A stretch of 64,000 bases of DNA from Eubacteriales bacterium. Lineage in GTDB: Bacteria; Bacillota; Clostridia; Oscillospirales; CAG-382. The stretch is from NCBI GenBank assembly GCA_045596605.1, contig JAZOCR010000143.1:3743-67742 (forward strand). Reading direction: 5' to 3'. Made by a program: the position numbers and the translations under genes. The notes below the pieces were generated by a model. The model was given only the letters and a program-made list of their open reading frames with translations. It made no database searches and was not told the origin of the DNA. Shown here piece by piece: positions 1 to 43,616 of this stretch. Each line of letters starts with the position of its first letter. Position 1 is the stretch's first letter.

Positions 1-223
1 ACGGATACTCCAAACCTTCATAAAGCTTCCAGTCAAGTCCTATAAATTCGGATATGTTGATTTCTTTGTTTTCGGTTTGGTCTTTTACATCATCCTTGAC
101 AGCATCAAGGGTTTCACTTGCGTTGTCTTTTCCCTTTTCGGCGTCATTTTCGCCGAAGGAGCAAGCTCCAAGAGATATGAGCATCAATAATGCCAATAGG
201 GCTGAAAGTGTTTTTTTAGTCAT
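1..223 (-). CDS. Lipoprotein, N-terminal part only (gene runs off the window start)
   Basis: Absent from the ORF track because it is truncated. On the reverse strand, GAGGAGG (231-237) lies 7 nt before the ATG (221-223). The N-terminus MTKKTLSALLALLMLISLGAC is a signal peptide with lipobox LGAC. The frame stays open to position 1. Confidence 0.6.
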   Translation of the reverse strand, partial: MTKKTLSALLALLMLISLGACSFGENDAEKGKDNASETLDAVKDDVKDQTENKEINISEFIGLDWKLYEGLEYP

Positions 224-603
224 AATAATGCCTCCTCGTGTGGATTGGGTTGACTCAAGAGCGTCCTGCCACTGCGATTGATATATTCCTTAAAATAATT
301 GTATCACATGCCAATGACAATTTCAAGATGTTTTGGAATTTTCTTAACCACAGATAAATGATTTGTAAATGTTGACAAAAATTCCAACAGCGATTATGGT
401 GCCGGCAGCTTTGAAAACACCGAAAATGTTAAAACGCCATTTTTATCACAAAAAAGAAAAAGCCGGGGTAAAATGGCGAAACCCAAGCCCCAACATATTC
501 AGTATAACATACTCGAACCAAGTTGTCAATATATGGTTGTGCATTACCTCTAAATTCTGCGTAATAAACAAAAATATTTTAGTAACTTTGTTTAAAATAC
601 ATA

Positions 604-632
604 TTGCAAAACCGGAAAATGTATGCTATAAT
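604..632 (+). promoter_or_regulatory. Sigma-A type promoter (TTGCAA, 17-nt spacer, TG-extended TATAAT)
   Basis: TTGCAA at 604-609, spacer of exactly 17 nt, TG at 624-625, TATAAT at 627-632. No ORF with an RBS follows it. Confidence 0.55.
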
Positions 633-639
633 ATAGACA

Positions 640-1118
640 CAAAGGAAAGAGAGGTACACTCCAATGAGAAAATAAACCTCAAAGCTTTTACGAAAGACAA
701 AAGAAGTTCAGAATCGATAACGGAGCTCTGACAGGGAAAAACGACGGAAAGAACAGGTCGTATTAAGGCTCGGATATGTATAGGCAAATACAGAAATAAA
801 ATATGTATCCGAAAAAAGAAAAACAAAGGTCTTTCAGTAAAAGCAGGACAAATCGCCCTTGCAGGAAAACAGAAAAATCAAACGGATTCCACGTATGGAA
901 AATGAAAAGAAAAAAAGGTTTAACTTTGAAAATCCGGGCAAGAGGCAGACAAAAGAAAGCGAGGATAAAAAAGATGTTAGATATCAAGGAGAGCCGGAAA
1001 TAGCTCCGAACTGTGCGTAAAGAAGCATAGATTCGGAGCTGTTTCCATTTTAAAAGACAATTAACAGAGAGTTTTGTCTGCACGGGAAAATATCCTCTTG
1101 CAGAATTTTTCTTTTTTT
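640..1118 (+). ncRNA. Candidate non-coding transcript or very long 5' leader (purine-rich, ORF-poor)
   Basis: It lies downstream of the 604-632 promoter. My hand count for 641-1000 is about 47% A and 70% purine. Hairpins sit at 771-811 and 887-900. Terminator-like stems at 1002-1040, 1055-1079 and 1078-1103 are followed by a T-run at 1106-1118. I recognised no known RNA family. Confidence 0.3.
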
Positions 1119-1280
1119 GGGGGGAGCTTCTCACGATTATCACATTGCGCACACTTTTAGGGGTGCAATAATTTTGCGCATGTTCAAATCAAGTTAACAA
1201 ATAGGTGATATTATGTTATGTGTGTTATTGTAAAATACCATAAATATGCGTATAAAAAATATAACAGGAGATAAAAAGCT

Positions 1281-2252
1281 ATGATCGAAATTAAAAATCT
1301 CGTCAAGCGTTACGGCGCAAATATAAAGGCCGTGGATAATATATCCTTCAGCGTTAACGACGGAGAAATCATGGGTTTTCTCGGACCTAACGGCGCAGGT
1401 AAAAGTACAGCCATGAACATTCTCACAGGATACCTTTCCGCAACCGATGGCGTGTGTCTTATCGACGGCGTGGATATCCTTGAGCACCCAATTGAAGCAA
1501 AGAAGAAAATAGGGTATCTTCCGGAGCAGCCCCCTCTTTACCTTGAAATGACGGTGCTTGAATACCTCAATTTTGTATATGACCTTAAAAAATGCACCCT
1601 TAACAGAAAAAAGCATATAGCAGAAATCTGTGAGGTTATAAAAATCACGGATATGGCACATAGACTTATCGGCAACCTTTCAAAGGGCTACAGACAGAGA
1701 GTCGGCATCGCCCAGGCGCTTATCGGAAACCCCGAGGTGCTTATCTTTGACGAGCCTACCGTAGGTCTTGACCCGATGCAGATTATAGAAATAAGAAACC
1801 TTATTCGCTCCCTCGGTAAAAACCACACCGTTATCCTCAGCACGCATATACTTCCTGAGGTACAGGCAGTGTGCGACAGAATCGTGGTTATAAACAAGGG
1901 TAAAATCGTTGCAAACGCAACTGCTCAGGAGCTTGATAAGCTTTCCGGTACAACCGGCAGATACAGACTTAAGGTCAGCGGAAATCCGCAGGACGTTCTT
2001 GCGATTCTCCGTAGTATTGACGGCATAACGAAGGCAGAAAAGCTTGTTGAGGAGCAAAACACACCGGACTGCTCCGCATTTATGATTGAATGTGCTTCCG
2101 GCGACGATATAAGAAAATCGGTGTTTTACGGACTTGCAAAAGGAAATATGGCAATACTTTCCTTTGAGCCGGTCAGCGCAAGCCTTGAAGATGTTTTCAT
2201 TTCGCTCGTAGAGCACGGCACGGGAAATGTAAAGGAGGGTAAAAAACGATGA
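1281..2252 (+). CDS. ABC transporter ATP-binding protein (ABC-2 / GldA-like)
   Basis: Walker A GPNGAGKST, signature LSKGYRQR, Walker B LIFDEPTVGLD. AGGAG RBS at 1266-1270. First gene of a 4-gene operon. Confidence 0.9.
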   Translation: MIEIKNLVKRYGANIKAVDNISFSVNDGEIMGFLGPNGAGKSTAMNILTGYLSATDGVCLIDGVDILEHPIEAKKKIGYLPEQPPLYLEMTVLEYLNFVYDLKKCTLNRKKHIAEICEVIKITDMAHRLIGNLSKGYRQRVGIAQALIGNPEVLIFDEPTVGLDPMQIIEIRNLIRSLGKNHTVILSTHILPEVQAVCDRIVVINKGKIVANATAQELDKLSGTTGRYRLKVSGNPQDVLAILRSIDGITKAEKLVEEQNTPDCSAFMIECASGDDIRKSVFYGLAKGNMAILSFEPVSASLEDVFISLVEHGTGNVKEGKKR

Positions 2253-2959
2253 ACGCAATATTTAAAAGAGAGATGCGCTCCTATTTTTCATCTCCTATAG
2301 GCTATATATTTATGGCGGTGTTCCTTGCAATGTCGGGATTTCTCTTTTCCATTATGACCTTTATGTCAAAGAGCTCGTCGGCAAGCGGATATTTCGTATC
2401 CCTTATATTCATTTTTATAATAGTAATTCCGCTTCTTACCATGAAGCTTATGGCGGAGGAAAGAAAGCTGAAAACAGAACAGATTCTTCTGACGTCACCG
2501 GTAAGCCTTTCAGGAATTGTAATAGCAAAATTTCTTGCAGCCTTTACAATGTTTGGGCTTACGTTTATCGTGTCGGTAATTATCAACTTTTTCGTGCTTG
2601 CAAGATTTACTGACACAATAAGCTACGCAGAGGTTCTTGGTAACGTTATAGGTATACTTCTTATAGGTGCTGCCTTTATCGCCATAGGACTGTTTTTGTC
2701 CTCGCTTACGGAAAGCCAGATAGTTGCCGCAATTACCACTATTGCCGTAATACTCGTCATGGTGCTCCTGGATGCAGTGTCCCAGTATATAGGAAACGAC
2801 GCAATTCGTGCAGGAGTAAAATGGCTGGCAATAGCAAGCAGATTTGCCCCCTTTTCAGCGGGAGTCTTTGATCTGTCCTCTATAATTTACTACATAAGCC
2901 TTGCGGTAATTTTCCTTTTCCTTACCATTCGTGTTTACGAAAAACGCAGATGGAGTTAA
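2249..2959 (+). CDS. ABC-2 family permease (GldF-like)
   Basis: ATGA overlap with the upstream ATPase gene. Polytopic hydrophobic protein of about 236 aa with about 6 TM segments. Confidence 0.8.
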   Translation: MNAIFKREMRSYFSSPIGYIFMAVFLAMSGFLFSIMTFMSKSSSASGYFVSLIFIFIIVIPLLTMKLMAEERKLKTEQILLTSPVSLSGIVIAKFLAAFTMFGLTFIVSVIINFFVLARFTDTISYAEVLGNVIGILLIGAAFIAIGLFLSSLTESQIVAAITTIAVILVMVLLDAVSQYIGNDAIRAGVKWLAIASRFAPFSAGVFDLSSIIYYISLAVIFLFLTIRVYEKRRWS

Positions 2960-4468
2960 ATGCAAAAAAGCATGCAGAAAGGAATGACGAAAATGAACAT
3001 TAAAAAAATTACAGGCTCAAAAGGCTTCAGATACGGCTCAGTAGCAGTGGCGTTTTCCTGCGTGTTCGTTGCGATAGTGCTGGTAATTAATATAATCATA
3101 ACGGCTCTTGGTACAAAATTTTCTCTTTACGTGGATATGACGAATCAGGAGTTTTATACAGTATCTCAGGCGAGCAAGGAGCAGCTTTCCGGGATAGATA
3201 CCGCCGTGGAAATAGTATTTTTCCAAAAGAGCGATAAAATTTCCGATAATAGCTATCTCGGCTACGTAAAGCTGCTTGCACAGGAGTACGAAAAGAGCTT
3301 TGACTTTGTGGAGGTAAAGTTCCTTGACCTTATGAGCCAGCCCACGGCATCTAATAAGTATAAGCTTTCAAGCTCTGACTATATTTATTCAACCACCGTC
3401 GTAGTGCATTGTCCTGAAACTCAAAAAAGCAAAATAATCCAGCAGGAAGGCTTTTATACCTTTACCACCGACAGCTCCGGTAATAAAACCGGCGTTTACG
3501 GCTTTAACGGAGAAAAACGCTTTACCGCAAATATACTTCAGGTTACAAGCGACAAAAAGCCGATAGCACTCTTTACAACGGGACACGACGAGACGTCTTC
3601 GGTAAGCCTTTACAATCTTCTCTCAGAGGAGGGCTACGAGGTAGGTCTTATTGATCTTACCACCCATGAAATTCCCGAGGATACACAGCTTCTTATAATA
3701 AGTAATCCTACCCGTGACTTTGCAGGTCTTGCTGCAGAAAACAACGGAGGAACCAATGAAATACGTGCGATAAACAATTACCTTGCCAATGGCTACGGAA
3801 ACGTTATGGTGTTCCTTTCGCCGGAAACTCCCGAGCTCCCCGAGCTTTCGGAGTATCTTTCGGAATGGGGAATCGGATACGACTCCGGCAAGGTGCTTAT
3901 GGACAGTGCATCAAACACCATTGACACAAGCAACCTTCAGATAATTGCAGGCTATTGCGGAGCGTCTGACAGCTACGAATATCAGCTGCATAAGACTGCT
4001 TCCTCAAAATCCGTAAAAATGATAAGCGCACGCAGCACAGTGCTGAAGGCTCTTGACAGCAGTGCCGTTCCGGTTCTCGCTGCATCGCCCTCCTGCGTAA
4101 GCGTTACGGGTGACAATAAGACCGAGCCCTGTGCAAGCTCACCGCTCGTACTGCTTTCAAGCAGATCCAGGTACGTGAACAACCAGGAAGTAAGATCCAA
4201 TATGCTTGTTTTCAGCTCGCCCTACTTCTTTAACAGCGAATATACAAGCACGTCGGTTTACGGTAACGCCGAAATGCTCTACGGAGCAATGAAGCTTTTC
4301 GGAAATAACGCAGTATCAGTGGATATTTCCACAAAGCCCTTTGGCGATACGTCCCTTGATATAACAAACTCTACTGCAACTGCAATGACGGTAGTTATAG
4401 TTGCCGTGTTGCCGGTGATTATACTCGTATTTGGAATCGTTGTGTGGCTCAGGAGAAAATCAAGATGA
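2960..4468 (+). CDS. GldG-like ABC transporter auxiliary protein
   Basis: Third gene of the operon. It has an N-terminal TM, a large extracytoplasmic region and a C-terminal TM (VVIVAVLPVIILVFGIVVWL), the usual GldG-family layout. The start may instead be the ATG at 2993, which follows AAAGGA. Confidence 0.7.
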   Translation: MQKSMQKGMTKMNIKKITGSKGFRYGSVAVAFSCVFVAIVLVINIIITALGTKFSLYVDMTNQEFYTVSQASKEQLSGIDTAVEIVFFQKSDKISDNSYLGYVKLLAQEYEKSFDFVEVKFLDLMSQPTASNKYKLSSSDYIYSTTVVVHCPETQKSKIIQQEGFYTFTTDSSGNKTGVYGFNGEKRFTANILQVTSDKKPIALFTTGHDETSSVSLYNLLSEEGYEVGLIDLTTHEIPEDTQLLIISNPTRDFAGLAAENNGGTNEIRAINNYLANGYGNVMVFLSPETPELPELSEYLSEWGIGYDSGKVLMDSASNTIDTSNLQIIAGYCGASDSYEYQLHKTASSKSVKMISARSTVLKALDSSAVPVLAASPSCVSVTGDNKTEPCASSPLVLLSSRSRYVNNQEVRSNMLVFSSPYFFNSEYTSTSVYGNAEMLYGAMKLFGNNAVSVDISTKPFGDTSLDITNSTATAMTVVIVAVLPVIILVFGIVVWLRRKSR

Positions 4469-43231: not shown

Positions 43232-43232
43232 G

Positions 43233-43616
43233 TCTTGACCTGCCAGTAAGCCGTGTTCTGTATCTGGCAATCATCTATCTTGTCCTTACGTTACCGTAAG
43301 GCTCTGTGCCACTTGCGGCGAGCCGAGCAAGCTTTGCACCGGAACCGGTGCGTGCCACCTCGTGTTGCTTCGGATAGGGTTTACAGGAGTCCTGTGTTAC
43401 CATAGGACCCGGTGAGCTCTTACCTCGCCTTTCCACCCTTGGCTCTGCGAATGCTCGCTTTCATACCTCCATAAAGAAGTAGTAGCCGGTATATCTCTGT
43501 TGCACTCTCCCTGGGGTCACCCCCGGCGGACGTTATCCGTTATCCTGCTCTGTGAAGCACGGACTTTCCTCACTCAGACCAAAAAGGTCCTTTGCGCGAT
43601 TGCCTTGACAGGTCAG
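43233..43616 (-). ncRNA. rnpB: RNase P RNA
   Basis: The reverse strand contains GAGGAAAGTCCG, AGGGTGGAAAGGCGAGGTAAGAGCTCACCG, GTAAACCC, AGATAGATGATTGCC and ACAGAACACGGCTTAC in the canonical order. P1 pairs TGACCTGTCA (5' end) with TGGCAGGTCA (3' end). It has its own promoter and terminator. Confidence 0.92.

Follow-up and report, generated by a model that had tools for sequence, protein, structure and literature searches.

A candidate family of structured, purine-rich non-coding RNAs in Oscillospiraceae, with start-stop minigenes predicted at both ends

What is encoded in the long spacer at the beginning of the 64,000-nucleotide (nt) stretch of Eubacteriales bacterium DNA analysed here (contig JAZOCR010000143.1; “the window”)? 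A lipoprotein gene (MTKKTLSALLALLMLISLGAC...) starts at position 223 on the minus strand, the ATPase gene of an ABC operon starts with the ATG at 1281, and only short or low-complexity open reading frames (ORFs) were found between the two. A preliminary description of this DNA had offered two readings of the spacer, a regulated leader of the ABC operon or an independent RNA of 0.4-0.5 kb; the second is retained and the first abandoned here, in view of the varied contexts in which homologues occur. Positions ~639-1051 of the plus strand are best read as a stand-alone gene for a structured, purine-rich non-coding RNA (ncRNA) of ~415 nt, to which a probability of roughly 0.85 was assigned. Judged by comparison of sequences, the RNA represents a previously undescribed family of Oscillospiraceae (members of ~290-750 nt), that is, a new family within the known kind of stand-alone structured bacterial ncRNAs, and its selective maintenance is strongly supported.

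Promoter, composition and predicted structure of the RNA

Nine loci were compared: the window, L081, L084, L105, L109, L110, L112 and L115, all eight from uncultured Oscillospiraceae-like relatives, and L116 from the cultured Vescimonas fastidiosa. Close relatives were found through a protein index, by ATPase similarity; L115 was recovered by a protein-database search with a spurious antisense ORF of the region, and the Vescimonas locus by blastn against a plasmid collection. The region was kept in relatives: in L081 (ATPase 96% identical in amino acids, same arrangement as in the window) the RNA was 94.8% identical, compared with 87.6% over 6 kb, and in L084 (ATPase 85%) it was 76% identical, compared with 71.7% for the ABC genes. 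The RNA is therefore more conserved than the adjacent coding genes.

The consensus promoter described earlier at 604-632 was recovered by a scan (10 of 12 consensus matches), and its hexamers, spacing and TG were kept in L081, L084, L105, L110, L112 and L115; the Vescimonas form is TTGCTT-17-TGcTATGCT. An A/T-rich conserved region (~540-603) lies directly upstream which, together with the near-consensus promoter and its extended -10, suggests high expression. Downstream, a recount gave exactly the base composition first counted by hand (46.9% A and 69.7% purine in 641-1000, 80% purine in 941-1000). The purine content of the whole window, in a 360-nt sliding window, peaked at position 641, the AT skew of the purine-rich stretch reached 0.43-0.51, and the seven full-length homologues measured (Vescimonas not among them) had 63-67% purine and 15-20% C.

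The sequence between 640 and 1125 folds at -128 kcal/mol, compared with -90 +/- 5 in dinucleotide shuffles (z -7.4), and z-scores of -7.4, -5.9 and -5.0 were obtained for three homologues. Members of the family share one build (Table 1): a promoter, an unstructured 5' block, a variable multi-helix core and a near-invariant 3' block. Since MAFFT/RNAalifold on full-length sequences misaligned helix P1, in which the position of a bulge differs between homologues, independent folds and a hand-checked structure were used. The same helix set appeared in the independent minimum-free-energy folds of six homologues. In domain I (alignment A9, five sequences, hand-checked structure) 88.7% of the 40 pairs were paired, compared with 30-46% when the pairing partner was slid, and 14 of the 40 showed compensatory changes, compared with 5.8 +/- 1.8 in shuffles; none of 500 shuffles reached 14. 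The three loops of this domain are conserved while their stems change. The hairpins first noticed at 771-811, 887-900 and 1002-1040 correspond to conserved helices with compensatory changes, such as UUCCA/UGGAA to UUCCC/GGGAA in P6.

Table 1. Predicted features of the RNA locus and of the divergent unit (window coordinates; paired arms separated by a slash)
Feature	Position	Strand	Description
Divergent promoter	501..529	-	TTGACA (529-524), 17 nt, TGtTATACT (509-501); 11/12 matches plus TG
Candidate short divergent RNA	450..497	-	~8-nt leader, hairpin GUUGGGG/CCCCGGC (~494-462), U-run (461-450)
RNA promoter	604..632	+	TTGCAA (604-609), 17-nt spacer, TG-extended TATAAT (627-632)
5' block	636..676	+	Shine-Dalgarno (SD)-like AAAGGAAAGAGAGGT (642-655), 8 nt, mini-ORF ATG AGA AAA TAA (664-675)
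Domain I	684..844	+	Long-range helix P1 (684-698/829-844) closing a three-hairpin junction
P2	708-712/727-731	+	Domain I hairpin, loop GAUAACG
P3	741-745/757-761	+	Domain I hairpin, loop GGAAAGAACAG
P4	770-781/801-812	+	Domain I hairpin, 12 bp, loop AGGCAAAUACAGAAAUAAA
Single strand	845-857	+	AGGACAAAUCGCC, conserved
Domain II	845..946 region	+	Closed by P5 (855-862/938-946), contains P6 (887-891/896-900); variable
3' block	944..1051	+	GGCAGAC, SD-like AGAAAGCGAGGA (954-965), P7, 9-codon mini-ORF, P8, AUUUU (1047-1051)
P7	973-977/981-985	+	Hairpin in 3' block
9-codon mini-ORF	974-1003	+	ATG TTA GAT ATC AAG GAG AGC CGG AAA TAG
P8	996-1016/1025-1046	+	21-bp terminal hairpin, loop GUAAAGAA, dG -35.6, z -10.3
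Tail	1052..1118	+	Weak hairpins 1055-1079 and 1078-1103, 13-nt T-run; shared with L081 only; z -1.6

The 5' block, near-invariant in eight loci, is essentially unstructured (-5.6 kcal/mol, z -1.0), so that its SD would be accessible. With the RNA start predicted at ~639, AAAGGAAAGAGAGGT falls at +4 to +17. The interior of the mini-ORF that follows varies (AGAAAA, AGAAAG or GAAAAG), and the ATG and in-frame TAA are always retained; in Vescimonas the mini-ORF is shorter by 3 nt (ATG ACC TAA) and the SD-like counterpart is GAAAGGGTGA. The core between the invariant ends ranges from ~100 to 500 nt in length, domain II (~90 nt in the window) being a single hairpin in L115 and enlarged in L105 and L110, where the whole RNA measures ~510 and ~750 nt respectively.

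The 3' block (alignment A6) showed 100% pairing over 26 pairs, with 4 compensatory and 3 one-sided changes. This region holds an invariant 36-nt segment, AGAAAGCGAGGAUAAAAAAGAUGUUAGAUAUCAAG, and a 3' core, GATGTTAGATATCAAG, which would have made a better search pattern than the 18-mer from the 5' block. From AGAAAGCGAGGA to the ATG of the 9-codon mini-ORF there are 8-9 nt, and the stop codon of this ORF falls in the 5' arm of P8. In Vescimonas the sequence of P8 is almost wholly different with the pairing retained, and the mini-ORF is exactly one codon shorter. A covariance model (CM) of the block, R2, scored 126-132 bits in seven loci, 103 bits in L109 (cut by the contig end) and 51.8 bits (E 4e-11) in Vescimonas. 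Another CM match, L036 (25.7 bits), was rejected as a homologue, being the terminator of a MATE-transporter gene.

P8 and the AUUUU that follows it are the predicted terminator and 3' end. Homology stops a few bases past P8, where most homologues have a T-rich run; the end of the conserved RNA is thus moved from 1118, as first proposed, to ~1046-1051. The stacked hairpins and T-run described at 1055-1118 do exist as drawn, but they are weak, lineage-specific and outside the conserved RNA; the tail may serve as a back-up terminator in the window genome, and the other homologues have unrelated downstream terminators.

Coding potential, known families and mobile DNA

A small protein-coding gene was considered and ruled out by frame-breaking insertions and deletions (indels) and the lack of third-position bias. 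The earlier judgement that the region holds no credible ORF was borne out: L081, at 95% identity, lacks 1 nt at 872, which breaks the frame of ORF 803-1003, neither this ORF nor the sense ORF 859-1020 is conserved, and the longest sense ORF differs in each homologue. Seven of eight indels in L084 and nine of ten in L112 were not multiples of 3, and substitutions fell into the three codon phases as 38/28/31 and 34/25/30, without the 3-nt periodicity that would have betrayed a missed gene. Two ORFs called within the RNA are spurious, a 41-aa sense ORF in assembly GCA_052846195 (L081 1713-1838) and a 146-aa antisense ORF, P0121, in an ENA assembly (L115 563-1003), and the present result corrects these annotations.

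The 3' tail of ORF 803-1003 does hold the conserved 9-codon mini-ORF with its good SD, and the transcript might accordingly be read as a dual-function RNA or micropeptide mRNA, with MLDIK(E/N)SRK (MLDIKSEG in Vescimonas), possibly also the tripeptide, as product and the rest as untranslated region (UTR). The SD spacing, the conserved AUG, the in-frame stop, the frame-preserving 3-nt indel in Vescimonas and the identity of the first five codons across all loci agree with such a product, which was nevertheless considered improbable: there is zero synonymous variation though neighbouring genes are only ~72% identical, the sole variation within the clade is non-synonymous (GAG to AAT), the tail of the peptide is not conserved in Vescimonas, the bulk of the conserved and covarying sequence falls outside the ORFs, and a peptide of 3-9 aa would come without signal or modification context.

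No known RNA family was recognized, in agreement with the preliminary description. Rfam 15, whose scope includes OLE, ROOL, GOLLD, raiA, 6S, tmRNA, SRP, riboswitches, T-box and ribosomal-protein leaders, was scanned against the whole window with gathering thresholds, and only RNase P passed (RNase P RNA class A, 43232-43615, minus strand, 228.7 bits). In a permissive scan of positions 1-3000 (E<=10) the best match was SpF19, at 21.3 bits against a gathering threshold of 60 and in the terminal hairpin only. Rfam scans of L081, L084, L087 (an unrelated locus described below) and Vescimonas were also negative, ARAGORN found no tmRNA in the window, and a literature string search with the conserved loop and block sequences gave no match. 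As regards toxin-antitoxin systems, there were no tandem repeats in the RNA and no adjacent ToxN-like gene, as would be expected for type III (ToxI-like); for type I, the sense ORFs are K/R/E-rich and not conserved, and no conserved complementarity to the candidate divergent RNA was seen by inspection.

The RNA might also be non-functional: a pseudogene in decay, what is left of a mobile element, or noise of composition behind a fortuitous promoter. Its composition is extreme, the flanking genes vary as they do around mobile DNA and insertions have accumulated alongside it; yet its conservation exceeds that of the neighbouring coding genes, five helices show compensatory changes, the promoter is retained in different genera and the RNA is single-copy in the 64-kb window. 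Blast against phages gave no relative and the plasmid collection only the Vescimonas chromid, a true homologue; pattern scans of viral contigs returned nothing or chance matches, and neither terminal repeats nor a transposase were found at the RNA. Conservation and covariation largely refute a lack of function, the least credible of the explanations weighed here. Phage or mobile DNA as the identity of the RNA was rejected on the same searches and repeat checks.

Gene contexts and independence from the ABC operon

In five of the nine loci (window, L081, L109, L110 and L112) the RNA immediately precedes the same ABC operon and has the same orientation; in L110 it is also downstream of thrS. In two others a minus-strand gene separates the RNA from the operon: a 162-aa ORF without Pfam hit in L084 (878-1366) and a 429-aa SLFN/AlbA_2 + HATPase_c_4 gene in L105 (977-2266), which suggests that the site just behind the RNA terminator is a hot spot for insertions. 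In L115 the RNA sits between an Fe-S protein gene and prfB. The homologue of V. fastidiosa MM35 (L116 2311-2600) is carried by pMM35_01, an 860-kb replicon (NZ_AP023416.1, ~65.15-65.45 kb, minus strand), in a stretch without annotation, flanked by a TetR gene on one side and by spoVAC and an EF-G gene on the other, and two further terminators separate it from the downstream genes. A blast search with the L116 locus also pointed to another matching site within the 860-kb record, known from that search only.

Because the flanking genes differ between loci, the RNA is regarded as an independent gene and not as a leader of the ABC operon; the idea that homologues always precede this operon did not hold in L115 and Vescimonas. 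L002 and L003 have no such RNA and yet retain the proximal upstream block of the operon itself (window ~1165-1214). The block at 1150-1215, GCAATAATTTTGC..ATGTTCAAATC..GTTAACAAATA with a small palindrome, also occurs in L110 and L112 and is probably the promoter or operator of the ABC operon. A scan of the genome collection with the ABC ATPase gave 80 loci (Oscillospiraceae, Eubacteriales and Lachnospiraceae metagenome-assembled genomes, MAGs), in none of which the RNA was detected with blastn or the CM; near the ABC operon, the element is thus confined to a narrow clade. No RNA was present near the operon in L001, L002, L082, L083 and L111 either (ATPase identity 77-85%).

A cis-acting role could be that of an attenuator of the pyrBI type, a leader in which translation is coupled to transcription attenuation: a ribosome on the 9-codon ORF would prevent P8 from forming, with read-through into the downstream operon. 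As in pyrBI-type attenuators, the end of a short ORF falls within the 5' arm of a terminator hairpin; its SD, AUG and in-frame UAG (1001-1003) in the stem are kept in all loci, with an ORF exactly one codon shorter in Vescimonas, and no consensus sigma-70 promoter was called on the plus strand at 1119-1280, between the RNA and the operon that it directly precedes in five loci. Such a mechanism is nonetheless unlikely. In contrast to pyrBI-type leaders, the RNA fronts unrelated genes in L115 (prfB) and Vescimonas (spoVAC, behind the two further terminators) and oppositely oriented ones in L084 and L105, so that four loci contradict an invariable position in a 5' UTR without an intervening gene; the proximal block of the ABC operon is conserved where the RNA is missing, and a leader of 400-750 nt with a large, covarying, multi-domain core exceeds what attenuation needs. 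No conserved alternative terminator/anti-terminator pairing was seen beyond the GGAGAGC (988-994) suggested earlier as a competitor for the terminal stem, which found no support: it reads GAATAGC in L084, L105, L109 and L112, where the target stem also differs.

Possible roles of the minigenes and of the divergent unit

If the RNA is an independent gene, its most plausible role, offered as a best guess, is that of a trans-acting RNA or ribonucleoprotein whose ends are guarded by ribosome-loading minigenes. The RNA would act in trans, the loops of P3, P4 and P8 and the invariant 36-nt segment being predicted binding surfaces for a protein or a pyrimidine-rich RNA, with C-poor, A-rich linkers that would hold the conserved loops and this segment unpaired. 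The minigenes at both ends (SD, AUG and early stop) would load ribosomes or 30S subunits, and this loading could protect the RNA against RNase J, which degrades from 5' to 3', in the manner of the STAB-SD/hbs-type stabilisers of Bacillus, or alternatively the minigenes could couple the state of the RNA to translation. The 5' minigene is the candidate stabiliser; the 3' minigene, with its stop in the P8 stem, might couple the state of the terminal hairpin to translation, while P8 would terminate transcription and block 3' exonucleases. The trans action and the ribosome loading, taken by themselves, are tentative; the best explanation as a whole, structured ncRNA gene and these details together, was given somewhat better than even odds.

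The extended SDs at both RNA ends are complementary to the 3' tail of Firmicute 16S rRNA, and AGAAAG, the complement of CUUUCU in this tail, showed a modest enrichment, with 3-6 copies against ~1 expected in four of six homologues. The frames of both minigenes were kept across a 3-nt length change in Vescimonas. A ribosome-loading stabiliser is proposed for the 5' minigene because ribosomes that initiate at a strong SD form a barrier to RNase J1 in Bacillus subtilis (PMC5737220). STAB-SD (cryIIIA of B. thuringiensis; Agaisse & Lereclus 1996, as cited in PMC5737220) and the hbs mRNA of B. subtilis likewise have an extended SD-like sequence near an unstructured 5' end, where 30S subunits or initiating ribosomes are bound and RNase J1 is blocked (PMC5737220), and the 5' block has such a strong, accessible and conserved SD near its 5' end. 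Those elements, however, stabilise protein-coding mRNAs, whereas the RNA of the window has a start-stop ORF of 2-3 codons on a non-coding RNA and carries a second SD site at its 3' end. Known minigenes (lambda bar, axe-txe; PMC2490762, PMC8708949) share the SD, the ORF of two to few codons, the stop and the A-rich context, but act via peptidyl-tRNA drop-off or local translational control; the window RNA shows no sign of toxicity and no coupled downstream ORF.

Several observations weigh against this account, or against parts of it. The SD-like motifs and AUGs might simply follow from the purine-rich composition, and ribosome loading by itself leaves unexplained why the stretch from SD to AUG (GUACASUCCA) is conserved too. 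Since the 9-codon ORF shows no synonymous variation, its conservation is at the level of RNA and no proof of translation. Only a short U-tract follows P8 in the window, which makes the exact 3' end uncertain. Only nine loci are at hand, eight of them from one narrow clade, and all close homologues are MAG or metagenome contigs; with few related sequences the covariation statistics are weak, influenced by phylogeny and indicative only. The gene neighbourhoods give no clue to the function of the RNA, and with five of nine loci directly upstream of the same co-oriented ABC operon, some read-through regulation of this operon by the RNA is conceivable.

A sponge of the CsrB/RsmZ type, titrating CsrA or another global RNA-binding protein through GGA or A(N)GGA motifs, would look similar in outline: it too would have a strong promoter, a terminator hairpin and single-stranded, purine-rich linkers from one hairpin to the next, and the window RNA contains 13 GGA motifs, several beside hairpins. 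Unlike in CsrB/RsmZ, GGA and A.GGA counts did not exceed the dinucleotide-shuffle expectation in six homologues (p 0.13-0.91), the conserved loops have no GGA in common (in L105, for example, P3 has the loop AGAAAGAACAA) and a repeated binding unit was not found, which makes a sponge very improbable.

Closer parallels to the trans-acting, minigene-guarded RNA proposed here are OLE, ROOL, GOLLD and raiA (PMC12286853, PMC5737381, PMC12968392), stand-alone genes of anaerobic Firmicutes and gut bacteria for RNAs of several hundred nt, with strong promoters, multi-helix junctions closed by long-range helices, conserved purine-rich loops on covarying stems, and a function that cannot be read from gene context. 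The window RNA differs from them in having no sequence or structure match (cmscan with Rfam 15), in being smaller and less ornate, with a middle of variable length and a narrow phylogenetic range, and in its conserved SD/start-stop minigenes at both ends; unlike OLE with its neighbour oapA, it has no conserved neighbouring protein gene. Bacterial structured RNAs of several hundred nt with unknown function are rare, and each of these four opened new biology. The present family has covariation support and an unusual modular build, with invariant ends around a core of variable length; each end carries a conserved minigene, a divergent partner promoter is conserved as well, and the hosts are abundant, poorly studied gut Oscillospiraceae. 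Since one member resides in the cultured and sequenced V. fastidiosa MM35, transcript mapping, knock-down and pull-downs are feasible.

The partner promoter is divergent from that of the RNA (Table 1) and was conserved in L081, L084, L105, L110, L112, L115 and Vescimonas. A hairpin followed by a U-run occupies the same position behind it in all loci, with differing, covarying stem sequences, although in the window alone this hairpin is unexceptional (z -1.1). Because the divergent promoter faces a convergent gene in L110, L115 and Vescimonas, the unit is not the 5' UTR of a gene there; it probably yields an RNA of 50-95 nt, and the locus may thus encode two RNAs. Comparison of the short with the long RNA by inspection gave only U-run/purine complementarity, regarded as compositional. 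Two further elements of the preliminary description do not belong to the unit of the long RNA: the hairpin at 446-478 is not conserved as such and overlaps the conserved, terminator-like hairpin of the minus strand, and conservation of the spacer is lowest around the promoter-like site at 372-400 (44% identity even to L081).

A metagenome scan with the 18-mer of the 5' block returned chance hits and the unrelated RNAs of L087 and L088 only. L087 4430-4905 (minus strand; JGI Ga0129315_1000032) is an A-rich, RNA-like unit of ~430 nt with its own TTGACA/TAATAT promoter and terminator; 20-29 nt are common to it and the 5' block of the window RNA. It contains 4-5 tandem units of ~51 nt (AAAGAAAGAGGTACNNTCCAWTGR), each with AAAGAAAGAGGTACNNTCCAWTG, an SD-like site and a start-stop ORF in which the stop follows 1-3 codons after the start. 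On a doubtful but conceivable extension of the ribosome-loading idea, the start-stop minigenes (5' AUG-1/2 codons-UAA; 3' 8-9 codons with UAG in the terminal stem) would be the functional core of a ribosome-engaging ncRNA, which senses or modulates initiation, termination or recycling capacity or sequesters 30S subunits, perhaps together with the divergent short RNA, and the L087 array would be a second example. L088 1490-1540 was listed with L087 as an unrelated RNA-like match.

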